A stretch of DNA of 64,000 nucleotides, taken from Thermoanaerobaculia bacterium. GTDB taxonomy: Bacteria; Acidobacteriota; Thermoanaerobaculia; Multivoradales; JAHZIX01. The DNA is taken from NCBI GenBank assembly GCA_027069135.1, contig JALXFE010000182.1:67175-131174 (forward strand). The letters run 5' to 3'. This document shows positions 24,839 through 47,181 of this stretch, one piece after another. The notes under the pieces were generated by a model. It made no database searches. It was not told where the DNA came from and worked only from the letters and a program-made list of their open reading frames with translations. The number at the start of each line of letters is the position of its first letter. Within the stretch, counting starts at the first letter, position 1. Made by a program: the position numbers and the translations under genes.

Positions 24839-24862
24839 CATTGAAAATATCTACGGTATAAA
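24835..24862 (+). promoter_or_regulatory. Sigma70-like promoter (TTGACA-16 nt-TATAAA) immediately after, and overlapping, the lanM stop, positioned to drive the precursor gene.
   Basis: TTGACA at 24835-24840, TATAAA at 24857-24862, 16-nt spacer, in an AT-rich 170-bp intergenic region. Confidence 0.4.
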
Positions 24863-24965
24863 ATTAGCTTATTGTGATCTGTCGACTAATCTGACGCCTG
24901 AATGGTCGCCTGGGCGGGCGATAGGCGGACGATTGGACGACGTGAAGTTTCTGTCGGGAGGAATC

Positions 24966-25005
24966 CCTCCTTCTGGCGAGAACCTTCGCACTATCTAGAA
25001 GGAGG
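24966..25005 (+). promoter_or_regulatory. Hairpin that pairs the lanA Shine-Dalgarno (GAAGGAGG) with an upstream anti-SD (CCTCCTTCTGG).
   Basis: 24966-24976 cctccttctgg pairs with 24995-25005 ctagaaggagg: an 11-bp stem with one G.U pair and an 18-nt loop. ATG of lanA is at 25011. Confidence 0.45.
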
Positions 25006-25010
25006 CTTGG

Positions 25011-25235
25011 ATGAAGAAACAGGAAATCGCTCGTGCGTGGAGAGATCCCAAGTACCGCCGGAGCCTGAGCACCGAGCAGAAGGCTCAGCTACCGACCCAT
25101 CCGGCAGAGTGGATGGTGGGGGTCGAGGACGACGTCCTCGCGAGCGTCACCGGTGGCTGTTGCTACCCGGGGAACAATACCGTCACGTTGTGTACCGGCA
25201 TCTGTTCCCCTTGCCCGCCGGTGCATTGCTACTAG
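25011..25235 (+). CDS. lanA: Lanthipeptide precursor (LanA) with an NHLP-like leader ending in a double-glycine and a Cys-rich 25-aa core.
   Basis: 74 aa: MKKQEIARAWRDPKYRRSLSTEQKAQLPTHPAEWMVGVEDDVLASVTGG | CCYPGNNTVTLCTGICSPCPPVHCY. 'ARAWRDPKYRRSL' resembles the NHLP leader motif (AKAWKDPaFkqeL). GG precedes the core. SD GAAGGAGG sits 5 nt upstream. Located between lanM and a C39-peptidase ABC transporter. Confidence 0.8.
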   Translation: MKKQEIARAWRDPKYRRSLSTEQKAQLPTHPAEWMVGVEDDVLASVTGGCCYPGNNTVTLCTGICSPCPPVHCY

Positions 25236-25265
25236 GCTCTTGAGGCTTTAGCTTTCGGCGGGTAA

Positions 25266-25300
25266 GACCACTGACGGGCCTTACCCGCCGGAGTCGGAGC
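25266..25300. terminator. Hairpin between convergent lanA and lanT. Candidate bidirectional terminator.
   Basis: cggcgggtaag (25266-25276) pairs with cttacccgccg (25290-25300): an 11-bp stem with a 13-nt loop. No clear U-tract. Confidence 0.35.
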
Positions 25301-25313
25301 CACGCCAGGGCCC

Positions 25314-31615: not shown

Positions 31616-33715
31616 TCAGCTCGGAAGAGTCGACGGTTCTGTCGGCCGCAGGATCCAGGCCAGCACCACCGCCGCCAGGGCCAGGGAGAGGAGGCCCCGG
31701 AGAGGGTGCCCGAGCAGGAGATCTCCAATTCCTGCTAAGGGGGCGAAGACGACGATCACTCCGCCTAAGAAGCGCAGCACCATGGGGCGTACCGGGTCCG
31801 CGGGAGAGTCCAGGTAAGGGCGGAAGCTGGGGCCTGGGGGACGCACTCGCCGAGCGAAGCTTCGGAGCGTGTGTTCCGAATTTCGAGGCCCCGCCAAGGA
31901 GACCGTGACCCAGGTGATCAGACTGGAGCCGGCGACCAGGAGAATCTTGGTCCACGGTTCGATGGCACCGAAAAAGAGCGGGTTGGCGGCGCCCAAGAGG
32001 GTGGGGGCGTCGAGGAGTTCGAGACCTAAAGCGACGGTGGTCGTCATCCCCAGAGCTGCGAATTCCGCCTGGGGCGTGACCCGGGCCCAATACCATCGGG
32101 CCGCGGCGACGCTGCCCAATCCTGCTCCCAAGGTGATGAGGAAACGCCACACGGAAGCGATATTGCCGATGAAAAGGGCGGTGATCCCTGCCAATAGGGC
32201 GATGAGGATGATGGCGATTCGGCTGACGGCGACGTAATGCTCGGCAGAGGCCTGGGGTCGCAAGAACCGGCGGTAGACATCTTGGACGAGGTAGGAAGCC
32301 CCCCAATTGGTGTGGGTGTCGATGGTGCTCATGAAGGCCGCGAGCAGGCTCACCACGACGAGTCCCAACAAACCCGGCGGTAGGGTACGGCCGAGAATCA
32401 GCGGATAGGCCATCTCCCGGTCGACGAGCTCGACTCGGAGGCCTGGGATCGAGAGATCTCCTTCGGCGCAGCGCAGACGAAGGTCGTAGGTGCCGGATTG
32501 ATCGAAGCCCTGGAATCGGAGGGTCGCCGCGGGGCCTGGATGTAGTGAGCCGGCGGCAGCAGGCTCCAGGGGAACCGTCTGGCCACCGGCATCGGCGTCG
32601 GTACAGCCGGGAGGTAGGCCGCGGATCTCTAGTTCGCCCCCGGTCGCCACGTCCAGGCTGGCGGGGGTCACAAAGAGGCTCCTCTCCGAGCTGCCGGGAG
32701 GTGCGAATGTCAGATTCTCCAGAGCTTCCCCGGGGAGGCGTGGGTAGATCACCAAGGCTGCCAGCCCCACCAGGAGCCAGGGCCAGGGCCTCAGGGAATT
32801 GTGCGCGACCGAAAACCAGAGGCTGGCCCCCTGGGCGTGGGCTTCGTTGCGACAGGCGGCGAACCGTTGCACCAGGTAGCCGGTGCCTTCCGCATATCGC
32901 CACCAGCCGGCCATGAGGAGCACGGCGAAGTACAGGGGGGGCAGGGTCGGATGATCCGGGGGCGGTAGGAGGTCCAGGACATCGGCCAAGGTCCGTCCCC
33001 CTTCCGCCTCGACGGCGCTCGCCAAGGAGCCCAGGAGTCCGCTGCCTTCCGTCCCGTCGGCAGGATTCGGGGCTTGGCCGATCCCTCCGAAGCTCTGGAC
33101 GACGAGGACCGCCAACAGAATGGCGCCGCCCATCCCCAAGGCGAATTGCACAAAGTCCGTGACCACGACGGATCGAAACCCACCCAGGAGGGTGTAGGCG
33201 ACGGAGACGATCACACAACCCGCCACCACCCAGGCGGGTTGCACATCGAAGAAGGCGCGGGCGATCTTGATCATGGCGGCGATCACCCAGGCCATGGTCA
33301 GGCAGTTGATGAAGATCCCGAAATAGATCGCCTTGACCCCTCGTAGCACCGCCGCTGGGCGTCCGCTGTAGCGAACCTCCGTGATCTCGGCGTCGGTGAT
33401 CACTCCGGAGCGGCGCCAGAGCCGGGCGAAGAAGAAAGTCGCCGTCAGGTGGGCGATGGCCCAGCTCCACCAGATCCAATTGCCGCTGATTCCGTCCGCC
33501 GCCACGATCCCCGTGACTGCCAGCGGGGTATCCGCGGCGAAGGTCGTGGCCACCATGGAAGTACCCGCCAACCACCAAGGCAGACGTCGGTCGCCGACGA
33601 AAAAGGACTCGAGCCCCTTCTTCGCCGACCGGGCGAAAAAGAACCCGACGGCCAAAGCGAAGACAACATAGCCAGCGATGACCGCGAAATCGACGGGATT
33701 GAGGGTGGGACGCAC
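31616..33715 (-). CDS. Sodium:solute symporter family (SSF) transporter carrying a ~110-aa extramembrane insertion.
   Basis: N-terminus 'NPVDFAVIAGYVVFALAVGFFFARSAKKGLESFFVGDRRLPWWLAGTSMVATTFAADTPLAVTG' is typical of SSF. Multiple TM segments. The insert 'ENLTFAPPGSSERSLFVTPASLDVATGGELEIRGLPPGCTDADAGGQTVPLEP...LRCAEGDLSIPGLRVELVD' lies between TM helices. Confidence 0.8.
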   Translation of the reverse strand: MRPTLNPVDFAVIAGYVVFALAVGFFFARSAKKGLESFFVGDRRLPWWLAGTSMVATTFAADTPLAVTGIVAADGISGNWIWWSWAIAHLTATFFFARLWRRSGVITDAEITEVRYSGRPAAVLRGVKAIYFGIFINCLTMAWVIAAMIKIARAFFDVQPAWVVAGCVIVSVAYTLLGGFRSVVVTDFVQFALGMGGAILLAVLVVQSFGGIGQAPNPADGTEGSGLLGSLASAVEAEGGRTLADVLDLLPPPDHPTLPPLYFAVLLMAGWWRYAEGTGYLVQRFAACRNEAHAQGASLWFSVAHNSLRPWPWLLVGLAALVIYPRLPGEALENLTFAPPGSSERSLFVTPASLDVATGGELEIRGLPPGCTDADAGGQTVPLEPAAAGSLHPGPAATLRFQGFDQSGTYDLRLRCAEGDLSIPGLRVELVDREMAYPLILGRTLPPGLLGLVVVSLLAAFMSTIDTHTNWGASYLVQDVYRRFLRPQASAEHYVAVSRIAIILIALLAGITALFIGNIASVWRFLITLGAGLGSVAAARWYWARVTPQAEFAALGMTTTVALGLELLDAPTLLGAANPLFFGAIEPWTKILLVAGSSLITWVTVSLAGPRNSEHTLRSFARRVRPPGPSFRPYLDSPADPVRPMVLRFLGGVIVVFAPLAGIGDLLLGHPLRGLLSLALAAVVLAWILRPTEPSTLPS

Positions 33716-33911
33716 CGGGGCATTGTATGCGGTGGAGTCTCCGGGGGGAAACCTTGGCGGGCTTTGCGCCGAGGCGGCAACCGTTTGGATTCTGCCCGAG
33801 CCATTTCGATGGCAGGTATTCCTTGATGTATTATCAGGCTGTGTAGAGAAATTCGAAGAGGTGACCGCAAGGGATGAGGGCCTCCGCCGTCTTCATCGGA
33901 GGTGCCGAACA

Positions 33912-36464
33912 ATGGCCTACCGTCGAAGGGCACTCGAGATCCTCGCCGTCGTGATCGTGACGGCTTGCGGCGGTCCCGGGGAAGGAACCGGCGTCGGCGC
34001 GGGAGATCCACTGGCGGACTGCGACCGAAGATACGCCCTTGCGCCCGCAGCTAGAAAGTCGGTCGACTGCTTCTACCAGTACGCCAAGAAGGCTTCCGCC
34101 AACTCGGAGCGAGCCCGGATTCGCCTGGAGAAGCTCATCGGTGAATCTCCCGGTGGCCCATGGCTCCGCTTCTACCTTGGGAATGTGCTCTGGGGCCACA
34201 GTGACTTGGAAGGAGCGGAGCAGCGCTACCGCGAGGCAGCGAAGCTCTTCAAGGAAAAAGGCGATAGAACTGGCGAAGTCGAGGCACGGACAACCTTGAT
34301 CCGACTCCTACAGTCACAGCCGCGACAAGATTGGCAGTGGCTCTGGGAAGAGCTCGAGATTCTCTCAGAGACCGCCCAAACCAGCGGCGACCCTGTCCTC
34401 CGAGCTCGGGCAGATATCAGAGAGGCAAATCAGCTACTGATCGAAGGGCGTGACCTCGAGCGGGCCTACAACCTGCTGCTGGCCGGGGAGACTCGAGTGA
34501 AAACGGCCCGAGATCGAGATCGCTATCTCGGCCGGTGGCTCGAGACCATGGTCAAGACGAGCTACTCCCTGGATCGTCTGCAAATCACGCAAGGGTATCT
34601 CCATGATTGGAAGGAGTTCCTCGCAGCGTCGGGCAGGAATCCCCAGCAATGGGCTACAGCTCTACATCTCGAGTTGGCGGTCTACGTCACCCTGGCCCCA
34701 CCTTCCGCGAAGGCTGGAGAACACGCTTTGGAGCTCGCCTACGAAGCCCTGGAAGCCGCCAGAGAAGCCAGGAGCTTCGAGAACTTCGTCCAGGTTCAGC
34801 GCCTCCTCGGAATGCTCGAGGGAGGGGAACGAGGGCGGAAGGCCCTCGAGGACTCAGTCGAGCGTATCGGCGATTTGCATCCCGAGATCGCGAGGCTCTG
34901 CCGAAGTGCATTGGCGGTCAACCTTGCGGCTCATCAACCGGAGGAAGCTCGGAGTCAAATGGGGGAAGTCCTGACCTCGGCAAGGGCTGCCGAGGACTCA
35001 TGGTCGCTACTCTTTGCCCTCGAGGACTCGGTCAAGATCGACTGGAAGATTCTGGAACGCGACCACGCTCTCGAGCGAACACAGGAGGCTCTCGACGCCA
35101 TAGAGGCCTTGAGAGCACGGCAGAAAGGAGACCTCGGGCGTGGGGGAGTCTTCTCCGCTTGGATGGGCCTCTTCGAGCTACAAGCTGGACGGCTTCTCTC
35201 CGGCACCGGCGGTGTTCCTTCCCGGCTCGATCTGGAGAGGGCTTTCGCGGTGCTGGAAAAGAAACGCGCTCGGGTGCTTCTCGAAACTCTTCAGGCATCC
35301 GGGGCCGAAGATGTCCGGCTCCCTACCTTCCCTTCCCTTGCCGAGGTAGAGGGGAGCCTGAGGGAGAACGAAGCCATGCTCTCGTATCAACTCGCCTACG
35401 ATGAGGACCTCTTTCGGGAGTTTGTAGGTGGGTCATGGATTCTCGTGTCGACCCGGGGAGGAACGCGGGCCTACAGGTTGCCGAACCTCCTCGAACTACA
35501 AGAACCCTTCGAGGGACTCAGGAGGCTCGATGACCCCGGCGATGATCCAGGCCTGCTAGCCTACCTCCATAGGCAACTCCTGGACAAAGCTCTGGAGAAG
35601 CTGCCTCGGGGTATCGCGCGCCTCATTCTCGTCTCCGACGGAGCCCTCCACCAACTTCCCTTCGCCGGCCTTCGGGAATCAGCAAAGGGGCCGCCGCTGA
35701 TCGCCCGATTCGAGCTCTCGACCGTACCGTCGGCGACCCTATGGTGGCAGTGGCGGCAGAGTGAGGACGTCCAGGGCAGCCTCCCGGCTCTGATCCTCGC
35801 CGACCCGGACATGGCTGACCTCGAAGAGGCGGGAAACCACCGGCGGCCGGACGAAAAATCAAAGAAAATTCTGGGCTCCCTGCCCTATGCTCGCGTGGAG
35901 GGGCAGCTGGCCTTTCGCTACCTTCGAGGGGACAATCGACTCCTTCTCGGGGCAGAGGCTTCGGAGCATGGCCTCAAGGAGAAGCTCCTACAAGGGGACT
36001 TCGGGGCGATCCATTTCAGCGCTCACGCCTGGGCTGACGAGAGGTTTCCGGAACGATCCGCGATCTACCTGAGCTCTGGAGACGGCGAGGACGGCTTGTT
36101 GCATCCTGAAGAGATCGCCAACTTGAACCTCCGAGGCTTCCTCGTCGTCCTCGCGGCCTGCGACACCGGAGCGGGCGAGGTGCTTCGAGGAGAAGGAACC
36201 CTAAGCCTCGCGAGGTACTTTCTCAAGGCAGGTGCTGACAGCGTCTTAGCGAGCCACCGGAAACTGCCAGATCGGGAGGCGGCGGAGTTCTTCGCCTCTT
36301 TCTACCGCCTGGTTGGAGAAGGAGATAGCGTTCAGGCAGCCCTGGCAAGCGCACAGCGAGAAGCTCGCGAGAAGGGAGTCTCAGAAGGAGTGTGGGCCAA
36401 TATCGTCCTCTTCGGCGACGGCTCGTTGGTACTTCGCCCTCGGACCGAGGGGCCACGTCTGTAG
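33912..36464 (+). CDS. Lipoprotein with N-terminal TPR region and C-terminal CHAT (caspase-like) protease domain.
   Basis: Lipobox 'AVVIVTACGG' at the internal ATG 33912. The track start at 33678 overlaps the convergent SSF gene and is rejected. CHAT dyad regions 'IHFSAHAWAD' (His) and 'LVVLAACDTGAG' (Cys). Confidence 0.8.
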   Translation: MAYRRRALEILAVVIVTACGGPGEGTGVGAGDPLADCDRRYALAPAARKSVDCFYQYAKKASANSERARIRLEKLIGESPGGPWLRFYLGNVLWGHSDLEGAEQRYREAAKLFKEKGDRTGEVEARTTLIRLLQSQPRQDWQWLWEELEILSETAQTSGDPVLRARADIREANQLLIEGRDLERAYNLLLAGETRVKTARDRDRYLGRWLETMVKTSYSLDRLQITQGYLHDWKEFLAASGRNPQQWATALHLELAVYVTLAPPSAKAGEHALELAYEALEAAREARSFENFVQVQRLLGMLEGGERGRKALEDSVERIGDLHPEIARLCRSALAVNLAAHQPEEARSQMGEVLTSARAAEDSWSLLFALEDSVKIDWKILERDHALERTQEALDAIEALRARQKGDLGRGGVFSAWMGLFELQAGRLLSGTGGVPSRLDLERAFAVLEKKRARVLLETLQASGAEDVRLPTFPSLAEVEGSLRENEAMLSYQLAYDEDLFREFVGGSWILVSTRGGTRAYRLPNLLELQEPFEGLRRLDDPGDDPGLLAYLHRQLLDKALEKLPRGIARLILVSDGALHQLPFAGLRESAKGPPLIARFELSTVPSATLWWQWRQSEDVQGSLPALILADPDMADLEEAGNHRRPDEKSKKILGSLPYARVEGQLAFRYLRGDNRLLLGAEASEHGLKEKLLQGDFGAIHFSAHAWADERFPERSAIYLSSGDGEDGLLHPEEIANLNLRGFLVVLAACDTGAGEVLRGEGTLSLARYFLKAGADSVLASHRKLPDREAAEFFASFYRLVGEGDSVQAALASAQREAREKGVSEGVWANIVLFGDGSLVLRPRTEGPRL

Positions 36465-36557
36465 CCGCCCTCCGACTCTGAAGAATCTTGGGATCGTTCG
36501 GGAAGCTCTACTGGCACCGAGGTCTCGGCCTTAGCCCGGGCAGTCATCGACTACCGG

Positions 36558-37241
36558 TCACTCCAGCTCGACGATTCCACTCTTTGATGAGATCTCCAAG
36601 CCGCGGTGGAAGGCGACTACGGTGTACCGAAGCCTGCTTCCCGTCGAGAGAACCCTCAGCTTCTCTTCGGGCACCAGATATTCGGCAGCGTGCAGATCCT
36701 CCACCTCGTCTACCAGCTCTTGATCTTCCTCGGTGCTCCAGACCACTCTCACTTCGCAACGGACCCCATCGGGAATCTCTCCCCAACGGAGTAGAAAGTT
36801 TCTTCTTGGCAGGGTTTTCGGCGTCGACAACCGCAGCGAGAATCCTTCGACTCCACGCAATGTAGTAATTTCCGTATCCTCGGAAGGAGCCCAGAGGCGA
36901 ACGGCAAACAGGCCGACGGCTACGATCAAGAGAGCTGCTGCAAGGCGGCCGTAGCGCCACCAAAGATGCGTGTCTCGGCGAGGGCTCGGACCTTGTAGGA
37001 CCACGGGAGGGCTCTGCGGCTCTTCTCGAAGCTCCCGAGCGACCTCCCAAAGCTGCCCACAAAGCAAGCAGGATGCCACGTGATCCGTGAGCTCACCGAC
37101 TTCTTTGGGGGAGAGCTCGCCGGCCACCGCCTCCCAGAGTCGAGCCCCGGGCGGACAATCCGCTCTCGGGACCTGCTCCCCAGCGGCGGCCCGTAGTGAA
37201 ACTCGGATTCGCTCAATGGCCTGCTGGGGTTCACGGTTCAA
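36558..37241 (-). CDS. Anti-sigma factor (zf-HC2 type) partner of the upstream ECF sigma.
   Basis: 'LTDHVASCLLCGQLWEV' HxxxCxxC zinc-finger motif followed by a TM segment 'LAAALLIVAVGLFAV'. Proposed TTG start at 37241 overlaps the sigma stop (TTGA). The track start at 37325 would overlap the sigma gene by 88 nt. Confidence 0.55.
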   Translation of the reverse strand: MNREPQQAIERIRVSLRAAAGEQVPRADCPPGARLWEAVAGELSPKEVGELTDHVASCLLCGQLWEVARELREEPQSPPVVLQGPSPRRDTHLWWRYGRLAAALLIVAVGLFAVRLWAPSEDTEITTLRGVEGFSLRLSTPKTLPRRNFLLRWGEIPDGVRCEVRVVWSTEEDQELVDEVEDLHAAEYLVPEEKLRVLSTGSRLRYTVVAFHRGLEISSKSGIVELE

Positions 37242-37759
37242 AACGTGAAGTCCTTCTTCGAGAGGCAGAGGCGAAGATCGGCCAATCCACGGTAGATGCG
37301 GTTCCGCGCCTGTTTCAGACCCCATCCCAAGAGGTCGGCGACCTCCTGAGCATTGTGGCCGAGCCTCCGAAGAGTCAGGGCTCGACAGCGATTCCTGTTC
37401 ATGCTTCCCATACAGTCGACAATCGCACGGCCCATTTCTCGGCTAGCCAAGTGTTGATCCGGCCCGAGAGCCGTTGACGCGCCAGTGGGTGGCTCTCCTT
37501 CAACATCCAGGGGCTCTTCCTTCCTTCGTACAGTCCGTCGAATCTCGTCCACGAGGACGCTATAGGCGACCTTCCTCAGGTAGAACGATGAGAACGTCCG
37601 ATCTTGCTCACTGCGTTGTTGAATCTCCCAAACCCGTAGCACAGCCTCCTGAGCAAGGTCATCCACGCTGCCGCGAAGCCACCCCGGGCATTTTCGCCGC
37701 AAGATCGAGACGAGTTCCCTGCGCAGGACACGATAGCTGATCGGTGGCTCGGCTTCCAA
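37238..37759 (-). CDS. ECF (sigma-70 family group IV) RNA polymerase sigma factor.
   Basis: Region 2 'LAQEAVLRVWE'. Region 4 HTH 'AQEVADLLGWGLKQARNRIYRGLADLR'. Confidence 0.8.
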   Translation of the reverse strand: MEAEPPISYRVLRRELVSILRRKCPGWLRGSVDDLAQEAVLRVWEIQQRSEQDRTFSSFYLRKVAYSVLVDEIRRTVRRKEEPLDVEGEPPTGASTALGPDQHLASREMGRAIVDCMGSMNRNRCRALTLRRLGHNAQEVADLLGWGLKQARNRIYRGLADLRLCLSKKDFTF

Positions 37760-38088
37760 GAGATGCTCCGGATCGGCGGCCGTAGGTCCCCATCGCGAGC
37801 TTCTCCCGATGACCGCCGAATGATCTGATTAGAGACTTCTTCTGCAATCGAAATATTAGCACAGCTCTCCTCATTGGCTGAGAGTGCCGCGACAAGAATG
37901 AAAACCAGAAAAGCTGGCGAGAAAGTGAGCATCCTCTGCGCCGGGGTCGTTATTCACCATGATCGGCAACAAGACCGGGTCGATGCATCGATCGACGAAC
38001 TGCAACGTCCTGCCGGACCTCTATGCCTCCGAATACTTGGTGGCTGGAGAGGTCTTAGTTTTCAAGGGTCACAACGAGGAGAGCCGTC

Positions 38089-39087
38089 ATGACATCTTTT
38101 CAGCGATTGAATCGGGTACTTGGAGTTACCGTTTTCGCAGTACCTATCCTCTCATTTCCTCTCTCGGCGCAGAATTCGTGTAGAGGGAGGTGTGACGAAG
38201 AAAATCCAAGACATCTACCAGATATCTGTATGCACTCCGCATTTGACAACTCTTCCGGTACCACCCATGTGAGTGTAACTTTATCTTGTCCAGCAGGCTC
38301 AAAGACCGGACGGATAGAGATTGGCGAGGGAACAGAACTACAAGGCAAGGTTGGCCCTGTGATCGCGGGGAACGCACTCATGGAGTTCGACATCGTCAAC
38401 GATCCTCCCGTGAAATCGATCCCAGTCCGGGGGACTTGCCTGAATACGAGAGAGGGAAGAGAGGCTTTCATTACGCGGGATTTCTGTGTGGATTACGAAT
38501 CAAGTGGCGAGAACTTAGATCCTGGCGAGAACCTAGGTCCGCAGCCGGTAATCTGGACGGGCTCCGGCCCCGACGGACTCGAAGGGTTCGATTTTCAGGT
38601 TGCTCTCGTCTGGATCGACGGTGCCCCCGATCACGAGACCGCCTATCGCATCGAAGTCATCAAGCGCTTGAGTGATCGGTCCTCCTACCGCATCGGCTTG
38701 ACCCGGGCGGAAAGCGTCGAGCAGATTCTTGTCGCTGGAGGCCAGGCCCAAAGCATAAGGGCATCGAGGGATCACCTCCTCGCCGACTTCTCCTATGACC
38801 TGGATCTCTGGGGATACAGGAGGCTCGAAACATCAGCATTCTTTGGCCCCGGCTGGGCGTTTGTCTCCGGCGATGACCACGTAGCCCAAGGCGGCGGGAG
38901 TCTAACGAACCTTGAGGATAGCGAGGGCCTGACCGCTCACTTCGGTTTGGGACTGAAGGCGAGGCTGAGCGATCGGGTTTATTGGAGTGCCACGGCAAGA
39001 GCCCGGTGGTTCGAGGCCCGTGTCGATGACGAGCTCGACACGGAGATCGCCATCGGAGTCGGCTTCCGCTTCGGTGGACAGCAGTAG
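38089..39087 (+). CDS. Secreted protein with Cys-containing N-terminal domain and C-terminal beta-barrel-like (OMP-like) domain.
   Basis: Signal peptide 'VLGVTVFAVPILSFPLSAQ'. C-terminal alternating-hydrophobic segments ending '...EIAIGVGFRFGGQQ'. SD GAGGAGAG upstream. Lower GC than surrounding genes. Confidence 0.45.
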   Translation: MTSFQRLNRVLGVTVFAVPILSFPLSAQNSCRGRCDEENPRHLPDICMHSAFDNSSGTTHVSVTLSCPAGSKTGRIEIGEGTELQGKVGPVIAGNALMEFDIVNDPPVKSIPVRGTCLNTREGREAFITRDFCVDYESSGENLDPGENLGPQPVIWTGSGPDGLEGFDFQVALVWIDGAPDHETAYRIEVIKRLSDRSSYRIGLTRAESVEQILVAGGQAQSIRASRDHLLADFSYDLDLWGYRRLETSAFFGPGWAFVSGDDHVAQGGGSLTNLEDSEGLTAHFGLGLKARLSDRVYWSATARARWFEARVDDELDTEIAIGVGFRFGGQQ

Positions 39088-39119
39088 ATAGAAACGAATC
39101 AAACAGAAAGGAGACAGCG

Positions 39120-40070
39120 ATGGCTACGAGAGATGCACAGAGCCAGCTTGCCGTGGTCCAGGAGGCCCGGGAGGCGAATGAACGGGAGATCCTTGCTTTA
39201 CCGAATGTGGCCGGAGTGGGGGTCGGATACAAAGTCACCAAGGGAAAGGAGACGAAGGAGCTCTGCGTGGTGACCTATGTGGAGACCCGAGTCGATGCCA
39301 CCGAGCTGAAGAAATCGGACATCGTGCCGAAGACCGTCAAAGCTTCGGAGGCTGCGGTGCGGGTGAAAACCGACGTCGTCGAGGTCGGCAAGATTGAAGC
39401 GCATGCCTTTACGGCACGAATCCGTCCTGCAAAGCCCGGCTACAGTATCGGTCACCCTCTGGTAACGGCAGGTACCTTCGGCTGCCTGGTGCGGGAGAAG
39501 TGCGGCCGGTGCCGGGTCTTGATGTTGAGCAATAACCATGTCATGGCCAACTCGAACTCCGCCTCCATCGGCGATCCCATTTTTCAGCCCGGGCGAGTGG
39601 ACGGGGGCCTGCCGGCGGCAAACCGAATCGCTCGGCTGCGGCGCTTCGTGCCGATCCGATTCAACGATCCGAACAAGCACAACCTGGTAGACGCCGCGAC
39701 GGCCCGGCCCCGAAATCTACGCGATGTCGTCGCGTCCATCACCGGCCTGGGGATTCCGAAGGGAACCGTCGAGGCCACTCTCGGGATGCGGGTGACGAAG
39801 AGTGGGCGAACGACCGAGGTGACGACCGGCCGGGTGATCGGTATCGATGCGACGCTGGCGGTGGGCTATGGCTCCATGGGGGTCGCCTTCTTCCGCAATC
39901 AGATCGTGACTACGGGGATGTCTGCCGGTGGTGATTCCGGCTCCCTTCTGCTCAGTGAGAGTGGCAGGGAAGGCACAGGGCTTCTCTTCGCAGGCTCTTC
40001 CGCCGTGACCCTTCACAACAACCTCAACAATGTCCTGATGGCTCTGGGAGTAGAGCTCATCACCGCCTGA
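39120..40070 (+). CDS. Chymotrypsin-fold (S1 family) serine protease without recognisable signal peptide, with an N-terminal pro-domain-like region.
   Basis: Catalytic motif 'GDSGS' (MSAGGDSGSLLL). Candidate His in 'LSNNHVMAN' and Asp in 'HNLVDAATA'. SD AAAGGAGA upstream. Confidence 0.6.
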   Translation: MATRDAQSQLAVVQEAREANEREILALPNVAGVGVGYKVTKGKETKELCVVTYVETRVDATELKKSDIVPKTVKASEAAVRVKTDVVEVGKIEAHAFTARIRPAKPGYSIGHPLVTAGTFGCLVREKCGRCRVLMLSNNHVMANSNSASIGDPIFQPGRVDGGLPAANRIARLRRFVPIRFNDPNKHNLVDAATARPRNLRDVVASITGLGIPKGTVEATLGMRVTKSGRTTEVTTGRVIGIDATLAVGYGSMGVAFFRNQIVTTGMSAGGDSGSLLLSESGREGTGLLFAGSSAVTLHNNLNNVLMALGVELITA

Positions 40071-40097
40071 ATTCAACCCCTATTGAAAGGAGAAGCC

Positions 40098-41024
40098 ATG
40101 CTTAATTTTTCGAAGCTCCCCGACCGTAACTGGCTGGACGAGGAGGCCGAACGAGAACCCGAGAAAGAGTACGCCGAAGAAGAAAGGGCGATCGCCGCGC
40201 ATAAGGAGGCCCGCAAACGGACGGAGGCTCAGACCTCGGACTTTCTCTCCCGCCTTCGGTTCAAGGCCTCCGACCTCGAGAAGGAGAACCGTGAGGAGAA
40301 CGCCTACGCGGATGAGTCCTTGAAGGTCGCGGAAGAGGACCTCGCCAGCCGTGAAGAGGTGGACGAGACGGAGACTATGGAGCTCCTCAGCCTCGACATG
40401 AACATCGCTCCGCAAACCGTGGCCGGGACGGGTCCGGGCCATTACTATGATTCCAATCCCTACCATTGTTGGTGGCGTAGGTACACTCACAATGAGGGTG
40501 GAGTCACGACCGGCCGGGCCGGCTGCAGCCGTTCCGCCCGAAAGATGTACCTCGATGCCTATGCCCGGGGCGACGGCGCCGGCTTTCGGGACGACAACTA
40601 CACGACCTGTTGGTCGAAGCTCTACTTCGCCTTCTGGCCCCGGCGCAACGGTCACGTTCGGGCGTTTGTACCGTTCACCACCCGCGGCTGGTATCGTATC
40701 TACGCCAACGACAAGTGGTACAACTCGAAGTCCGCGAAGATCGATCTGGACGTTCAGGTACAGCTCTATCAGAACTATTGGGGCGGCTACGTCAAGGACG
40801 ACGTCTTCCGTATCAGTAGGGGCAACGTCAATCGCAGCGGGCGGATCGATAGGTCTCGGAGCCTTTACAGCGGAGGTATCCCAGTGGGGGCCAATAAGTG
40901 GGTCATCGCCGAGGTGACGACCCGGGCCCACGCCTACACCTCCGGCGGCGGCTCGACGGCGAAGCTGGGCTTCTGGCCTCCGGACAATGTTTTCGCGCCC
41001 TACGTCCGTTTCGACTTCTCGTAA
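40098..41024 (+). CDS. Hypothetical protein: acidic coiled-coil N-terminus plus Trp/Tyr-rich C-terminal domain. No signal peptide.
   Basis: ATG at 40098 preceded by SD AAAGGAG. The track TTG start at 40083 is rejected. No motif recognised. C-terminal '...WYRIYANDKWYNSKSAKIDLDVQVQLYQNYWGGYVKDD...'. Confidence 0.45.
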   Translation: MLNFSKLPDRNWLDEEAEREPEKEYAEEERAIAAHKEARKRTEAQTSDFLSRLRFKASDLEKENREENAYADESLKVAEEDLASREEVDETETMELLSLDMNIAPQTVAGTGPGHYYDSNPYHCWWRRYTHNEGGVTTGRAGCSRSARKMYLDAYARGDGAGFRDDNYTTCWSKLYFAFWPRRNGHVRAFVPFTTRGWYRIYANDKWYNSKSAKIDLDVQVQLYQNYWGGYVKDDVFRISRGNVNRSGRIDRSRSLYSGGIPVGANKWVIAEVTTRAHAYTSGGGSTAKLGFWPPDNVFAPYVRFDFS

Positions 41025-41143
41025 TCCAGGTCGGGAGATTCGGCCTCTTCCGGGCCGAGTCTCCCGTTTCCCGGTGATTCTCACGGGGAAGCGGGAGGGA
41101 CCATAAAGATCTCGGTATCATTGTCCGGAGGAGGAAATCGGCT

Positions 41144-41551
41144 GTGAAGAAGTACCAGGGGGTTCTCTGCCATCGGATCCCGATCCCACCGGTTGCGCTG
41201 GCCTCTTTGGGTCCGGTGGCCCTGATGGGTCTGCTGGCCTGTAGCGGCGGCTCGCGGCCGGAGGATCCCAGCCATTCCGAAAGAGCCGCGAAAACTACCC
41301 TCGAGGAGTCGGGAGATCCGATGGGAGAAGAAGAAGTGAGCACGATCGAATCGATACGGGCCGAGTACGAGGCCCTCTTGATGGCCATTCCAGGAGTCGT
41401 GCTGGTCGGCACTGGTCTCGGTGCGGACGAAAAGCCCTGCCTGATGATCGGCACCTCCCGGCCGGTAGACGAGGTCCGTGAGCAGCTGCCGGAGGAGATC
41501 TTCCAGGTCCCCGTTGAGTTGAATTACCTGGGGGACATCGAGGCCCAATAG
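41144..41551 (+). CDS. Small lipoprotein of unknown function.
   Basis: GTG start with GGAGGAGG SD. Lipobox 'LMGLLACSGG'. Confidence 0.45.
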   Translation: MKKYQGVLCHRIPIPPVALASLGPVALMGLLACSGGSRPEDPSHSERAAKTTLEESGDPMGEEEVSTIESIRAEYEALLMAIPGVVLVGTGLGADEKPCLMIGTSRPVDEVREQLPEEIFQVPVELNYLGDIEAQ

Positions 41552-42798: not shown

Positions 42799-44688
42799 AT
42801 GACCCGATGGGGCTTTAGGGTCGCCCAAGCCAAAGAGCAGGACCTCATCATCCTGTGGGTGGAAAAGGGGGATGAAGCGGCTCGGGCCGAGGAGGTGAGC
42901 CTGGAGGACACGGCGGATCCGCAGCGCCAGATCGGTGGCATCCCGGAGATCCTTGCGACCTTGGCCGAACTTCAGGACGCCTTGCCGGCGGGGGTCGAAG
43001 GGCCCTCCCTGGAGCTCAAGGTGCTGGCCCACCCGGAACGGTTGGAGGGGGTCTTACGAGAGGTTGAGCTCTCAGCCGCTCGTTGGTTGGTGGTCGCTCA
43101 GCCCCGGGGCCCGAGAGGCCAGGGCCGGCGATTGGGGCGTCGATTGTTCCGTCGGGTGCGTTGCTCCGCTCTATTGCTTCGCCCGGGGAGTTCCGAAGAA
43201 CAACCCTTTCGCCGAATCCTCGTCCCCGCCGCCGGGGGGCCAAGCTCCCTGCGCGCCCTCGACCTGGGGGCTCGTCTGGCTCGGAAGGACGGTGGGAAGG
43301 TCGTGGCTCTCTACGTCGAACAGGGCTCCGATCAGCTCGCCGAAGCCGTCGGGCAGAAGATTCTGGGAGACGCGCTGCGGGCAGCCGGCCTCGAAAGCTC
43401 AACCGACCTGACGGTAGAGTCTCGGGTCGAGTTGGCGAACTCGGAGGTCGCGGGTATTGAAGGTGTCCTCGAGGATGGCTGGGATCTGGTGATCGTTGGC
43501 GCTTCGGGCCGAGGTCTCCTACGCCGGAAGTTGTTCAGAACCGTTCCGGAGCGCCTCCTCACCGGAAACGAAAGTGCCACGGTTGGGGTCGTTAGAGGAC
43601 CGAGGCCCCCGTCGGCGCGTCTGCGGGAGGGCTTCGAACAGGCTCTCGATCTTTCGGTCCCTCAGCTCGAGCGGGACGACCGGGTCAGCCTGGTGGAGAA
43701 GCTGCAACTCCAATCCCGCTGGAGCTTCGATTTTCTCGCCCTCATCGCCCTCTCGACGACCATCGCGGCCCTGGGTCTCCTGCAGGATAGTGCTGCGGTG
43801 GTCATCGGCGCGATGCTCGTCGCCCCCTTGATGACCCCGTTGTTGGGCGCCGGGCTGGCCCTCGTCCAGGGCAACCTACCGTTGATGAGGACGGCATCCC
43901 AAGCCATCGTCCTCGGTTTCCTGACGGCCGTCGCGATCAGTTTCGGAGCGGGCGCTCTTGTGCCCTTACCGCAGTTGACCTCCCAACTTGCCGCCCGCGG
44001 CCAGCCGACTCTGTTGGATCTCGGCGTTGCCTTCTTCTCGGGAATTGCCGCGGCCTATTGCCTCGGTCGTCCGAACTTGAGCGCAGCCCTTCCCGGGGTG
44101 GCGATCGCCGCAGCTCTGGTTCCTCCCATCGCGACTTTGGGAATTTCTTTGGCCATGGGTGAAAGGGAGGTGGCCCGGGGTGCGGGAATCCTCTTCGGAA
44201 CGAACGTCTTTACGATCATCCTCGGCGCCGCAACGAGTTTTTTCTTTTCTGGAATTCGCCCTAATCGTGGCTTGAATCGTGCCAATCGATGGGCTCGGAC
44301 GATGTTGGTGGTTCTGGTCCTTGCAGTGGCTGGGCTGGCGATTCCCTTGGGGTCCTTCCTGGTATCGCAGCTCCGGGCGGTAAGGCAGCCCGGTGGGGTG
44401 ACTCAGGAGCTGCATAGATCTCTGGAAGAGGGCCTCGCCACTCAAGGCTACGAGCTGACGAGCGCCCTTTGGAACCGTCGAGGGTCGCAGCCGGTGGAGC
44501 TGGTCCTACGGGTCGTCGGGGCAGACCCTCCGAGAGAAGATCTCGTCGAGGAATTAGCGCAGCGTGCGGCAGCCATCCTCAAGGGTCCGGTGGACCTGCG
44601 CCTGCACACCGAGTTGGTTGCGGAATCCCAGGCAGCTCCCACCGCTCCCACCGCGCCCGCCGACGAGCCGAGCCATTTCATCCCTTGA
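42799..44688 (+). CDS. Universal-stress-protein-like N-terminal domain fused to a DUF389-type polytopic membrane domain.
   Basis: USP-like region with 'LVIVGASGRGLLRRKLFRTVPERLL'. Membrane domain with 'VVIGAMLVAPLMTPLLGAGLAL' (DUF389-like AMLIAPLMgP motif). Start uncertain (42754 or 42799). Confidence 0.55.
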   Translation: MTRWGFRVAQAKEQDLIILWVEKGDEAARAEEVSLEDTADPQRQIGGIPEILATLAELQDALPAGVEGPSLELKVLAHPERLEGVLREVELSAARWLVVAQPRGPRGQGRRLGRRLFRRVRCSALLLRPGSSEEQPFRRILVPAAGGPSSLRALDLGARLARKDGGKVVALYVEQGSDQLAEAVGQKILGDALRAAGLESSTDLTVESRVELANSEVAGIEGVLEDGWDLVIVGASGRGLLRRKLFRTVPERLLTGNESATVGVVRGPRPPSARLREGFEQALDLSVPQLERDDRVSLVEKLQLQSRWSFDFLALIALSTTIAALGLLQDSAAVVIGAMLVAPLMTPLLGAGLALVQGNLPLMRTASQAIVLGFLTAVAISFGAGALVPLPQLTSQLAARGQPTLLDLGVAFFSGIAAAYCLGRPNLSAALPGVAIAAALVPPIATLGISLAMGEREVARGAGILFGTNVFTIILGAATSFFFSGIRPNRGLNRANRWARTMLVVLVLAVAGLAIPLGSFLVSQLRAVRQPGGVTQELHRSLEEGLATQGYELTSALWNRRGSQPVELVLRVVGADPPREDLVEELAQRAAAILKGPVDLRLHTELVAESQAAPTAPTAPADEPSHFIP

Positions 44689-45099
44689 CGCTTGCCCTCC
44701 GCCCGACTCGGAAGCCCACGGTGGAGCCGAAGAAATAGATACAGGAAACATTTCAAGATATTGGGTGTGTCAAACTTAATTTTCATGAATGTTTGATGGT
44801 CCCTGGGTTGTGTATTCGATCCCTGCAAAGCTTTCGTTCAAATCGAGGAGGGGGACACGGTTTGGAGCGTTTGCAGAGCATTTCTCTCCCTCGGATCCCG
44901 CCCGTAAAGGGCCCGATCAATAGAAAACTTTTGTTGTTTAGAAGTCTTTGTGCATATTGCCCCGTGTCGATCTTTCGTTCCTTGCTTCAGATTAGAAATA
45001 TATCCATAATCGTGAGGCGATATTTTCTGTTCCTGTGCGTTTCATTCAGCAGCCGGCGAGAGGACTGTTTGGCCCACCTACAAGTTCTGGTGGTGCAAC

Positions 45100-47181
45100 T
45101 TGAAGAACAGGAGGATGAGTATGTCTAAGGAGTTTCTTTGGTTCGGGAGATGTGGTAGTTTCTGTTCGTCCCTTCTAGTGATCTGTCTTCTAGGACTCGG
45201 TCTACTTACGCCAACTCCAGGCGCCGGCCAGGACATTTCTTTTCGGAATCGTTCCGAGGAGGTAGGTGTCGCCGGCTATCAGAGACAGCGGTCGGTTACG
45301 GCCGCCAGGGCGGAAGCTGTGTTTGCACTCGGAACGGTTACCATGAATGATTTCATCGGAAGCTATCCCATCAAGCCCTGGGGGGCCCCCGGCGTTGCGA
45401 TCCTGGACTTCGATGGAGACGGTGACGAGGATATCTACGTTACCAATGGTCCTGGTGCGGCCAACAGCCTCTACTCAAACCAGCTCCTCGAGAGTGGAAC
45501 CCTGAGCTTTCTTGACGTTGCGGCCCTGGCCGGAGTGACGTTGACAGATCAGGACAGCACCGGTGTCTGTCTGGGCGATACCGACAACGATGGCGACCCG
45601 GACCTCTACGTTCTCGGGCGCAGCGAGGCGAACCGTTTCCTCGAAAATTTAGGGAATGGAACGTTCGACGACCGGACGGTGCCGAGTGGCCTCGGTGGGG
45701 GAGATCGTTCCTCTAGCTCATGTGCAATGGGGGATGTCGACGGCGACGGACTGCTGGATATTGCCGTAGCCAATAATTTTGATATGAGGTCCAATTTTGC
45801 GATTTTCGTAGAACCATTTGCTCTCAACCAGATGAATGAACTGTTCCTCAACGAGGGTGGAAACAGTTTCACCGCTTCCGGGGTTGAGTCCGGCTTTGCC
45901 AACGTTCAAGAGATCACTTGGGCCATCGCGATGGTGGACCTGGATCTTGACGGGGATATGGATATTGTCACCGCGAGCGACAACGGCGGTATTCCGTTTG
46001 CCGTTTTCGGCGGCGTCGACCGGGGTTTCCTGCGGTTCTACAGCAATGACGGTGGGGGGCGGTTCACGGACCTTACGGCTCCAGCGGGCCTGTTAAACCC
46101 TGGAGACTGGATGGGTTTGGCCTTCGGAGACTTTGATGGCAACGGCCGCTTGGACATTTTTGGCTCGAATACCGGGGACTACTTCGAACCCTTTTTCGGA
46201 ATACCAGGAGGACTCGGGGACCAGGCGAGCCGTTGGTTTCTTCAAGGGGAGAACGGTGTCTTCAGTGATCCCGGTGTGGGGTCCACCGTCGCTTCACCCT
46301 TCGGCTGGGGTGCCGCCGCCGTGGACTATGACAATGATGGCCGCACAGACCTTATGTATTTCGGCGGCCTGGACGCCGGAGCCATCGTCGATTCATCCAA
46401 CCCCGGCATCGTCCTGCACAATACCGGCGGCGCGGTCTTTGACTATGACAGCCAGGCCCTGGCGGGCTCCGTCGATCACTCCCTGAGGGTCGAACATGGG
46501 GTCGCGGTCGGGGATTTGAATCGGGACGGCTTTCCGGACATCGTTTCTGTCGCCTCGAGTCGTTTGGGCCCGAACCTGCCGCCTGGGTTGATTCCGTATC
46601 CTTTCGAATACGGCTCTCCCTTCGACGGGACCGCGGCTTTCTTTCCTACCTTTCTTCCCGGAGAAAATCCAGGGGAATTGATCTATAGCGGTGCTTCGTT
46701 TCCCCGGGGTGATCTGGCGGTGGAGATCAGCAGTGGCAATGGCAATCGGTGGGTGAGAGCCGAGGCCTTGGGGACGATCGGTCTCACCTCCGCTGGTGTC
46801 ACCAATCGGAGTGGGATCGGTGCCGTGTTCAGCTTTACACCGAGCCGAGGGAATCAGTCCATCCAGCCGGTGGTGGGCGGTGGAAGCTATGCATCCCAAC
46901 ACTCTCTGGCCCAGATCTTCGGCTTGGGGCAGGCCCGGCGGGGAACCCTGGAGGTGCTATGGCCCGGCGGAGTTCGAAACCGACTCTATGGCGTCGGTAG
47001 CCGGGAAGAAATTCTCTTTCCGGAGATCCCTTGCAGTTTCGAGGACAGGTCCCAATCCTTTTTCTCTTATGTCGGCTGCCTTCATCTCTCGCTTCATGAG
47101 CTCAGAGCCGAGGGCGTCTTGAACAACAGACAGAAGGCCCGCTTCTTTCGCAGCGCGCTGTTGGCCTTTTTCTATCCTTGA
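45100..47181 (+). CDS. Secreted FG-GAP/ASPIC-UnbV protein (CRTAC1-like).
   Basis: Signal peptide 'LLVICLLGLGLLTPTPGAGQ'. Motifs DFDGDGDEDIYV, DTDNDGDPDLYV, DVDGDGLLDI, DLDLDGDMDI, DFDGNGRLDI, DYDNDGRTDL. UnbV tail 'GIGAVFSFTPSRGNQSIQPVVGGGSYASQHSLAQIFGLG...VLWPGG'. Alternative start at 45122 (AGGAGG + 6 nt). Confidence 0.8.
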   Translation: MKNRRMSMSKEFLWFGRCGSFCSSLLVICLLGLGLLTPTPGAGQDISFRNRSEEVGVAGYQRQRSVTAARAEAVFALGTVTMNDFIGSYPIKPWGAPGVAILDFDGDGDEDIYVTNGPGAANSLYSNQLLESGTLSFLDVAALAGVTLTDQDSTGVCLGDTDNDGDPDLYVLGRSEANRFLENLGNGTFDDRTVPSGLGGGDRSSSSCAMGDVDGDGLLDIAVANNFDMRSNFAIFVEPFALNQMNELFLNEGGNSFTASGVESGFANVQEITWAIAMVDLDLDGDMDIVTASDNGGIPFAVFGGVDRGFLRFYSNDGGGRFTDLTAPAGLLNPGDWMGLAFGDFDGNGRLDIFGSNTGDYFEPFFGIPGGLGDQASRWFLQGENGVFSDPGVGSTVASPFGWGAAAVDYDNDGRTDLMYFGGLDAGAIVDSSNPGIVLHNTGGAVFDYDSQALAGSVDHSLRVEHGVAVGDLNRDGFPDIVSVASSRLGPNLPPGLIPYPFEYGSPFDGTAAFFPTFLPGENPGELIYSGASFPRGDLAVEISSGNGNRWVRAEALGTIGLTSAGVTNRSGIGAVFSFTPSRGNQSIQPVVGGGSYASQHSLAQIFGLGQARRGTLEVLWPGGVRNRLYGVGSREEILFPEIPCSFEDRSQSFFSYVGCLHLSLHELRAEGVLNNRQKARFFRSALLAFFYP

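Follow-up and report, generated by a model that had tools for sequence, protein, structure and literature searches.

Here we combine sequence searches, structure prediction and gene-neighbourhood comparison to study a group of four genes, P1 to P4, in the genome of a Thermoanaerobaculia bacterium. They lie in a stretch of 64,000 nucleotides (nt) of contig JALXFE010000182.1, which we call the window throughout. The open reading frame list gives four co-directional genes on the + strand, and the last three of them, a protease, its uncharacterised neighbour and a small partner, make up the candidate protease and proprotein cassette with which most of this text is concerned. The four genes are as follows:

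P1, 38089-39087, + strand: signal-peptide protein of 332 amino acids (aa) with a C-terminus weakly like an outer-membrane-protein (OMP) barrel; lineage-specific accessory, outside the conserved cassette
P2, 39120-40070, + strand: leaderless NAL1-like S1 protease of 316 aa
P3, 40098-41024, + strand: protein of 308 aa, an acidic helical N-region followed by a basic, aromatic-rich jelly-roll
P4, 41144-41551, + strand: protein of 135 aa with a lipoprotein-type signal; paralogue of the P2 N-domain

Both the open reading frame list and a reading of the DNA agree with an earlier annotation of this stretch (the original prediction) on the four open reading frames, their Shine-Dalgarno (SD) sequences and their short spacers. 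P2 starts at ATG 39120, 32 nt after P1, with a strong SD (AAAGGAG) 5-7 nt upstream, and P3 starts at ATG 40098, 27 nt after P2, with the same SD, again 5-7 nt upstream; a TTG at 40083 falls inside the P3 SD, so 40098 is taken as the P3 start. P4 starts at GTG 41144 and is preceded by the SD GGAGGAGG.

The protease, its neighbour and the small partner

We begin with the protease, P2, which can be divided into three parts:

39120-39404, + strand: P2 N-domain (aa 1-95), built of four strands and a single helix and corresponding to the 'ATP-binding domain' of NAL1
39405-39443, + strand: linker between the two P2 domains (aa 96-108, AFTARIRPAKPGY), predicted to be disordered, with a conserved sequence
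39444-40070, + strand: P2 catalytic domain (aa 109-316), chymotrypsin fold with the triad H140/D191/S273 (GDSGS)

Pfam matches the two domains to the two halves of NAL1, marginally in each case (NAL1_N at 27.3 bits for a cut-off of 27, Nal1_C at 27.0 bits for a cut-off of 26.1), and the precomputed Pfam labels on P2 homologues agree with this assignment. The AlphaFold2 model of P2 (predicted local distance difference test, pLDDT, 81; predicted template-modelling score, pTM, 0.84; helix 2-25, strands 30-40, 43-54, 72-74 and 81-88) was compared with the PDB by Foldseek, and the top 34 matches are all NAL1 chains, aligned over about 360 columns and both domains with an expect value (E) of 2e-17 and a template-modelling (TM) score of ~0.72. 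Streptogrisins and alpha-lytic proteases come next, with matches limited to the catalytic domain (TM 0.73-0.79 to the target). At the level of sequence, the nearest PDB entries are the Glu-specific streptogrisin 1hpg (1e-4) and rice NAL1, and P2 matches phrog_20754, 'protease', over its full length (2e-69). The family is large: of 8,000 candidates that were scored, more than 5,690 match at E <= 0.001, and species-representative bacterial and archaeal genomes give at least 595 hits.

The original prediction had noted a GDSGS motif and the lack of a signal peptide in this protein, and we find both: the motif occupies residues 271-275, the triad H140/D191/S273 is invariant in 50 P2 homologues, and a hydrophobic N-terminus, sought in 152 family proteases, is present in none (0/152). 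Its further remark that the first ~100 residues resemble a pro-domain is supported to the extent that Pfam, the model, Foldseek and hhalign all set them apart as a separate domain with pro-domain-like features. The linker that follows has pLDDT below 50 at residues 97-107, and within it R102, P103, P106 and G107 are invariant. From this junction we propose a candidate autoprocessing site after H95.

The second gene of the cassette, P3, is the one for which family databases say least. Its parts are:

40098-40406, + strand: P3 N-region (aa 1-103), four acidic helices with a net charge of -15; proposed to be a removable pro-region
40407-40436, + strand: P3 linker (aa 104-113), low-confidence and variable in sequence; candidate cleavage region
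40437-41024, + strand: P3 C-domain (aa 114-308), a jelly-roll beta-sandwich with long strands, basic in net charge (+13) and 18% aromatic

The charge and the aromatic content bear out the acidic N-terminal part and aromatic-rich C-domain originally described. The AlphaFold2 model is a confident one (pLDDT 87.8, pTM 0.86), with N-region helices at 10-34, 36-52, 57-82 and 91-103 (pLDDT up to 94) and its lowest confidence, 60-62, between the helical region and the beta-domain, at residues 91-110. Neither the single sequence nor a profile has a match in Pfam, NCBIfam, PADLOC, PHROGs or the PDB sequences, and Pfam gives no family for any of 57 divergent members. A search of 5.8 billion proteins yields just 44 clusters of close relatives (clustered at 90% identity). 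All are full-length, with identities of 28-91% (45-62% in most cases), and their sources include Alphaproteobacteria, Deferrisoma, Campylobacterota and Thermosulfuriphilus. When 1.84 billion representatives are searched with a profile, 207 relatives are returned, most of ~300 aa. Export signals were sought in the P3 homologues examined and none was found. Together with the leaderless proteases, this speaks against the secreted effector module that the original prediction had considered.

With Foldseek, the P3 C-domain finds generic beta-sandwiches only, the best being Bd1399/DUF4360 (E 1e-8, TM 0.53), followed by carbohydrate-binding modules, TNF/C1q proteins and phage fibre tips. The invariant residues of the family sit in loops rich in Gly, Asp, Asn and aromatic residues (HNEGG, ARGDGSG..DDN, NDKWYNSK, DDNIN, EGSGS). 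Because successive strands alternate in direction, these loops probably cluster at one apex of the modelled domain, and that apex looks like a site for binding a ligand, a metal or a membrane.

The two halves of P3 also vary together. Across 153 sequences, the more negative the net charge of the N-region, the more positive that of the beta-domain tends to be (r = -0.78; r = -0.65 among 114 representatives at 50% identity; both values taken without correction for phylogeny). This anticorrelation is consistent with an N-region that masks the beta-domain electrostatically. We also considered an 'E-A-Q' motif shared by the P2 junction, the P4 C-terminus and helix 2 of P3 (TEAQ, 45-48) as a common cleavage motif, and set it aside as a weak lead only, since it is confined to the close P3 clade and is missing in divergent P3s served by the same type of protease.

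Now we turn to P4. It had been called a small lipoprotein, and a lipobox is present at L30-L-A-C33 (LLAC, with Cys33). Beyond this signal, residues 57-135 are a paralogue of the P2 N-domain that stops exactly at the domain boundary, at '...GDIEAQ'. When an alignment of 20 small partners is compared with one of 50 proteases, hhalign assigns the match a probability of 98.2% (E 5e-14), and the match spans P2 residues 7-97. This ending recurs: 27 of 61 distinct partner C-termini, across phyla, end exactly in '...G-x-[IV]-x-A-Q', and the others end mostly in A-E, A-L, A-R or A-G, or in A-Q plus a few residues. In the protease, the same A-Q boundary motif continues into the disordered linker. In the wider protease family a small partner adjoins the protease in 54 of 80 genomes, 18 of these with a 4-nt overlap, and 9 further proteases of at least 400 aa have no separate small partner. 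Since the partner stands beside the protease across the wider family, we take the ancestral unit to be protease plus small partner. The partner family is widespread and unannotated, and gene callers often miss it or misplace its start.

A signal-like N-terminal extension is carried by 18 of 60 partners (~30%), among them window P4 (LLAC) and its counterpart in a sister metagenome (TWAC); the remaining 70% are leaderless. The signal-bearing set, with compared loci numbered under the prefix L, includes the window gene (41144-41551), L089, L001, L010, L039, L043, L059, L065, L070, L075 and others. These partners keep a Met exactly at the start of the domain, which in P4 is the internal ATG at 41312, and it is conceivable that two P4 isoforms are made, one exported and one cytoplasmic.

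Between P3 and P4 lies one further element:

41042-41135, + strand: structured P3-P4 spacer, with a hairpin (41061-41097) inside a longer stem

The predicted RNA fold of this spacer has a free energy of -59.9 kcal/mol (z -3.3; 0/200 shuffles as stable), and its outer stem pairs CCUCUUCCGG (41044-41053) with the P4 SD CCGGAGGAGG (41126-41135). A strong GC hairpin follows the P3 stop codon in all six loci that were folded (window, L001, L006, L009, L004 and L007), and at three of them (L001, L006, L009) it comes with a terminator-like U-tract. On these predicted folds, the hairpin and the anti-SD stem suggest that P4 expression is uncoupled from that of P2 and P3.

Distribution and genomic context of the cassette

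At least six phyla have the gene order protease, P3, small partner, set among wholly different neighbours in every genome examined. We see it in Marimonas, Deferrisoma, Hydrogenimonas, Thermosulfuriphilus, Trueperaceae, Campylobacterales, Thermodesulfobacteriales, Rhizobiaceae and Agaribacter, and already a 91%-identical relative has different downstream genes. The protease-P3 pair thus keeps company across distant taxa with unrelated flanks. Among 80 related genome loci (L009-L088) the pair is found in 17, where P3 is confined to the protease subclade of the window; one member of that subclade, L050, has no P3.

Metagenomes widen this picture. A scan with an alignment of divergent P3 sequences, narrower than our most diverse P3 alignment (which had no usable conserved stretch), gave 58 loci. 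A NAL1-like protease lies upstream of P3 in 17 of the 47 loci that have at least 150 nt of upstream sequence, and a small partner follows in 16 of those 17. Another 11 P3 loci adjoin a protease of class S8 or M12. Here the distant P3-family genes have the same helical and jelly-roll build, no signal peptide and no NAL1-like protease; their neighbour is a leaderless S8 subtilase in 4 loci (Pfam 7e-23) and an astacin/M12-like metalloprotease in 7. The P3 family is tied to three mechanistically unrelated protease classes, S1, S8 and M12. Given that the form of P3 stays constant as the protease changes between two serine folds and a metalloprotease, P3 is better explained as a dedicated substrate than as an inhibitor or adaptor. 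The suggestion of a protease/substrate, or maturation, pair in the original prediction gains from this result.

Several loci depart from the common order. In Deferrisoma (L002/L003, 8998-12580) an unrelated 141-aa open reading frame (8998-9423 in L002) stands between P3 and the true small partner (9569-9808), and is followed further on by three more small open reading frames and a 653-aa protein with a weak Peptidase_C1 match, so that the cassette appears extended in this genus. On a long metagenome contig (L008, 7056-7916) the protease is split into open reading frames of 84 and 201 aa beside an intact P3, which may be a decaying cassette or an assembly error. In three loci a BNR/sortilin-Vps10-repeat protein of 1,117-1,171 aa comes after the P3-like gene (L179, 1256-4607; L209, 2790-6302; L210, 2964-6476); in L209 and L210 a small AraC-type regulator comes before it, and L178 has a weak homologue of that regulator.

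The same comparisons qualify the original description of a lower-GC block of four genes, possibly acquired horizontally. The dip in GC content is real: GC is 0.536 at positions 37501-38500 and averages 0.624 over the whole window (sd 0.031 for windows of 1 kb), and only the value at 44701 is lower. Its extent is limited to the 329-nt intergenic region before P1 (0.547) and to P1 itself, which has the lowest GC within the block (0.564; GC at third codon positions, GC3, 0.61). P2, P3 and P4 have a GC of 0.605-0.623 and a GC3 of 0.74-0.78, similar to the flanking genes. Taken whole, the block has a GC of 0.590, below only 92.5% of equal-sized windows, and its tetranucleotide distance is ordinary, with 22% of windows equally far or farther. 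We therefore reject composition as evidence for a recent horizontal transfer of P2-P4, as their GC, GC3 and tetranucleotides are host-like. What remains of the idea comes from elsewhere: the patchy phyletic spread and the unrelated flanks fit a rare cassette that is scattered horizontally. Around the block we found no tRNA, no Rfam element and no significant excess of promoters or terminators. Downstream follow a PF10023 aminopeptidase and a Usp-DUF389 protein (Pfam). Beyond these, positions 44500-45500 hold the lowest-GC kilobase of the window (0.533-0.542) and its largest tetranucleotide deviation, between the Usp-DUF389 gene and a gene for an FG-GAP/ASPIC repeat protein (45100-47181), after which comes a FadL-type outer-membrane transporter.

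P1 does not belong to the block in the comparative sense. We looked for it in the other cassettes and it is absent from all of them; its only relative among 5.8 billion proteins is 40% identical and sits in the same order in a sister metagenome. On these grounds we reject P1 as part of a conserved system, and with it the grouping of four genes, and its lone relative in a sister locus of the same order marks it as a lineage-specific addition. P1 has a signal-like N-terminus, and its C-terminus reads ...FRFGGQQ, with a non-aromatic last residue. The barrel-like character once given to it comes down to two sub-threshold matches, OMP_b-brl (E 0.043, 14.4 bits for a cut-off of 28.7) and TIGR04565 (14.3 bits for a cut-off of 60).

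Upstream of P1 lie the following features:

33678-36464, + strand: TPR-CHAT (caspase-like) protein (Pfam CHAT, 6e-50), adjoining the sigma/anti-sigma pair
36558-37325, - strand: zf-HC2-like anti-sigma factor, divergent from P1
37238-37759, - strand: extracytoplasmic function (ECF) sigma factor, divergent from P1
37925-37951, + strand: candidate ECF-type promoter GTGAGCA-N16-CGTT, ~140 nt upstream of P1

The Pfam scores of the sigma/anti-sigma pair straddle their cut-offs. Sigma70_r2 reaches 25 bits for a cut-off of 24, r4_2 stays at 21.5 bits (below 25.7), and zf-HC2 in the anti-sigma gene at 15.7 bits (below 22.2). The order CHAT, anti-sigma, ECF, P1, protease is kept in sister metagenome locus L091, where the trio of TPR-CHAT, anti-sigma and ECF genes (33678-37759 in the window) spans 148-3888; the CHAT protein may be a protease that inactivates the anti-sigma factor. 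As for the promoter, the window has a single exact copy of GTGAGCA-N16-CGTT, a count that is not above chance (0.81 expected with one mismatch), and it is conserved only in the sister loci L091 and L092, both from one sister metagenome, which have it at the equivalent site with an unconserved spacer. From its sequence and position, we take it as a candidate ECF promoter only.

Other cassettes adjoin sigma-54 activators, BTAD or AraC regulators rather than an ECF sigma factor. BTAD is found in Deferrisoma, and four cassettes lie beside sigma-54-dependent activators with a GAF or other sensor, an AAA+ and a helix-turn-helix domain, as assigned by reading the sequences and not by Pfam search: L009 (323-1882, - strand), L011 (2762-4450, - strand), L015 (7271-8875, + strand) and L016 (4556-5980, + strand). 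Histidine kinases adjoin further members of the family, and the type of regulator varies from locus to locus. The presence of dedicated regulators beside many cassettes suggests that the trigger of the cassette may be transcriptional.

Farther from the block, ~12 kb upstream, a LanM-type class II lanthipeptide synthetase (DUF4135 + LANC_like; 21581-24838, + strand) and, near it, a LanT-type C39-peptidase ABC exporter (25314-27542, - strand) give the region 21581-27542 the look of a lanthipeptide gene cluster.

A proposed mechanism and its alternatives

We put at roughly one in two the probability that P2-P3-P4 is a self-contained cytoplasmic cassette of protease and proprotein, in which P3 is a latent effector licensed by proteolysis. 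The steps that we propose are these. P2 would assemble, by homology with NAL1, through contacts of its N-domain with a neighbouring catalytic domain. P3 would be the dedicated substrate of P2, held inactive by its acidic helical N-region (~1-103), which would mask the basic jelly-roll electrostatically. P2 would then remove the N-region, most likely in or near the flexible linker (104-113), and the jelly-roll so freed would, as our best guess from the precedent of other protease-effector pairs, be harmful to the cell or act as a cell-fate effector. P4 would tune or inhibit P2, its free C-terminus '...x-A-Q' occupying the N-domain docking surface or the active site much as a cleaved pro-domain might, and its expression would be insulated from that of P2 and P3 by the hairpin or terminator and, in the window, by the anti-SD stem. 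In the lineage of the window, the cassette would have been placed behind the orphan envelope protein P1, probably under ECF sigma control. The biological role may lie in cell fate, stress response or defence, and it is by comparison with other systems that we propose an activity for cleaved P3.

A number of observations weigh against this proposal. The P3 linker, in or near which P2 would cut, is variable in sequence. The generic jelly-roll match is uninformative on activity, and the charge anticorrelation could be explained by a constraint on the isoelectric point of the whole protein. Three P3-like loci adjoin a BNR/sortilin-repeat protein in place of a protease, and three others (L184, L187, L188) have no protease that Pfam recognises among the neighbours scanned. 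P2 has no sensor domain, unlike known defence modules in which proteases are fused to sensors (STAND/Avs and others); PADLOC has no match in the window, and the look of a defence island, sought in the window and at the other loci, is not there, the neighbours being metabolic, transport and regulatory genes. P3 and the protease are 45-68% identical across phyla, which is more like housekeeping genes than fast-evolving conflict genes. Finally, P4 and other small partners (18/60 in all) bear signals and the proteases do not (0/152); if P4 is exported, a cytoplasmic P2 would be beyond its control except through a form made from ATG 41312.

Some of these same observations lead to another explanation, that the cassette is a housekeeping or stress machine for regulated proteolysis in which P3 is an unconsumed cofactor or adaptor whose jelly-roll apex takes up a ligand or client and brings it to a NAL1-like cage protease, with P4 as a structural subunit. 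The high conservation of P2 and P3 across phyla would suit it well, as would the undefence-like contexts with their frequent dedicated regulators (ECF, sigma-54 activators, BTAD), the P3 loop cluster, which is typical of binding sites, and the fact that NAL1 is a cage protease acting on specific regulators. It is hard to picture, however, a single adaptor family serving S1, S8 and M12 proteases of unrelated architecture, and the opposed charges of the P3 halves fit intramolecular masking better. For these reasons we consider the adaptor explanation unlikely.

Quite improbable, in our estimate, is an envelope or secreted effector module under ECF control, the option raised in the original prediction. 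Here P1 in the outer membrane and the lipoprotein P4 would bracket P2 and P3, and these two would take a non-classical route to the envelope and act there. Envelope functions are what ECF sigma factors usually govern. P1 has its signal peptide and weak barrel matches, P4 has a good SD and a lipobox that is also found in the sister locus (TWAC), the sister genome conserves the synteny and the candidate promoter, and signal-like N-termini occur in 18 of 60 small partners. Yet such an N-terminus is found in 0 of 152 proteases and in no P3 homologue examined, P1 is missing from all other cassettes, 70% of the small partners are leaderless, and those with a signal keep the Met at the domain start that would allow a cytoplasmic isoform.

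The order of a protease gene and then a jelly-roll with ~100 aa of helices in front does resemble the protease-capsid order of phages, and P3 could accordingly be pictured as a self-assembling structural protein (capsid-like, fibre or inclusion) whose helices are a scaffold or delta domain trimmed by a maturation protease, as in phage prohead maturation. Homologues of the protease are in fact carried by viruses: 63 IMG/VR viral contigs (L093-L155) encode one at 32-44% identity, stand-alone and without small partner or P3, that of L093 (4992-5957) within a tail/baseplate module between a baseplate-hub/tail-lysozyme-like gene and a tail protein gene, and the archaeal Aeropyrum coil-shaped virus encodes another. 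We regard this as highly improbable all the same: the phage fibre tips and viral jelly-rolls among the P3 fold matches are low in TM score and probability, searches of IMG/VR viral contigs and PLSDB plasmids gave no homologue of P3, and no other virion, portal, terminase or integrase gene lies beside any cassette.

Returning to the licensed-effector cassette, it can be extended into a broader and more tentative claim, one that we doubt in its full form: that the P3 family is a new class of proteolysis-licensed effectors, cytoplasmic jelly-rolls kept inactive by a helical pro-region of opposite charge and recruited independently by S1, S8 and M12 proteases, and that a separately encoded copy of the N-domain acts in trans to control bacterial NAL1-like proteases, its free '...A-Q' end serving as a product-mimic plug. 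If true, S1 proteases would be subject to a regulatory principle so far undescribed for them, and the prokaryotic ancestors of NAL1, a plant yield gene, would for the first time be placed in a functional context. The licensed-effector cassette, if correct, would enlarge the set of prokaryotic modules whose latent proteins are released by proteases, by a new effector family and by a branch coupled to metalloproteases; with the usual sensor fusions missing from this branch, its trigger would have to differ, through transcriptional control or a small partner. The three small soluble proteins would then be a testable system for the regulation of NAL1-type cage proteases.

Comparison with known systems

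In sequence and fold, the P2 catalytic domain is closest to the alpha-lytic/streptogrisin group (1hpg, 3sgb, 2sfa, alpha-lytic protease), with which P2 shares an N-terminal alpha/beta domain followed by a conserved junction. That group consists of secreted enzymes with disulfide bonds, which lose their pro-region by cleavage and degradation, whereas P2 is leaderless and its N-domain matches NAL1_N, with no Pfam match to an alpha-lytic pro-region. The free C-terminus of P4 at this junction recalls the product-like binding of the cleaved alpha-lytic/streptogrisin pro-region, and we know of no separately encoded pro-domain as a feature of that family.

For the P3 C-domain, the best fold match in the PDB is Bd1399/DUF4360 (PDB 8okh), an elongated beta-sandwich of two sheets whose function is unknown. 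Bd1399 is secreted, disulfide-locked and 165 aa long, has no helical N-region and has no known association with a protease, and P3 differs from it in these respects; identity is ~10%, and Pfam gives no DUF4360 match.

The closest parallel for the cassette as a whole is the unleashing of latent effectors by site-specific proteolysis, which several prokaryotic modules are known to use (Evans et al. 2025 preprint, PMC12642450). These include bacterial gasdermin, Pepco/Trypco, EACC1 and the zymogens of metallo-beta-lactamase (MBL) and alpha/beta-hydrolase type, Pepco being a protein of 117 aa and EACC1 one of ~13 kDa (PMC12642450). As in those modules, the protease gene here is tightly linked to a partner that does not look like an enzyme and that has a segment we propose to be inhibitory and removable, and one partner family is combined with different protease classes across genomes. 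The differences are equally clear. P3 is unlike gasdermin, Pepco, EACC1 and the MBL/hydrolase zymogens in sequence, size and fold, the gasdermin fold being a different one, and neither P3 nor P4 has a PADLOC, Pfam or NCBIfam match that would place it in gasdermin, Pepco or EACC1. The proteases here stand alone, with no STAND/Avs or other sensor in P2 or in its S8 and M12 counterparts; metalloproteases occur among the partners, and the contexts are not defence islands.

NAL1 itself is an agronomically important rice gene, and its product is the relative that P2 resembles over its whole length (PDB 7y77, 8pmm, 8has; Pfam PF25608/PF25819). In both, a domain of four strands and one helix precedes the chymotrypsin-fold domain, which carries a His/Asp/Ser triad. 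In NAL1 the counterpart of this N-domain binds ATP, and its contact with a neighbouring protease domain builds trimers, two of which stack into a hexameric cage (PMC12012508). At the positions aligned with the ATP ligands of NAL1, P2 has conserved basic or acidic residues (K38, R/K57, D85). Sequence identity is only 18-19%, and P2 has neither the extra N-terminal domain of NAL1 (residues 1-88), which supplies the strand exchanged in the hexamer, nor the plant C-terminal extension. Conversely, P2 has a separately encoded copy of its N-domain (P4) and a dedicated neighbour (P3), and NAL1 has neither. The prokaryotic relatives of NAL1 are uncharacterised. P2 is a new member of a known family, and the P3 family, the exchange of proteases around it and the partner that supplies the N-domain in trans vary a known kind of system in new ways.

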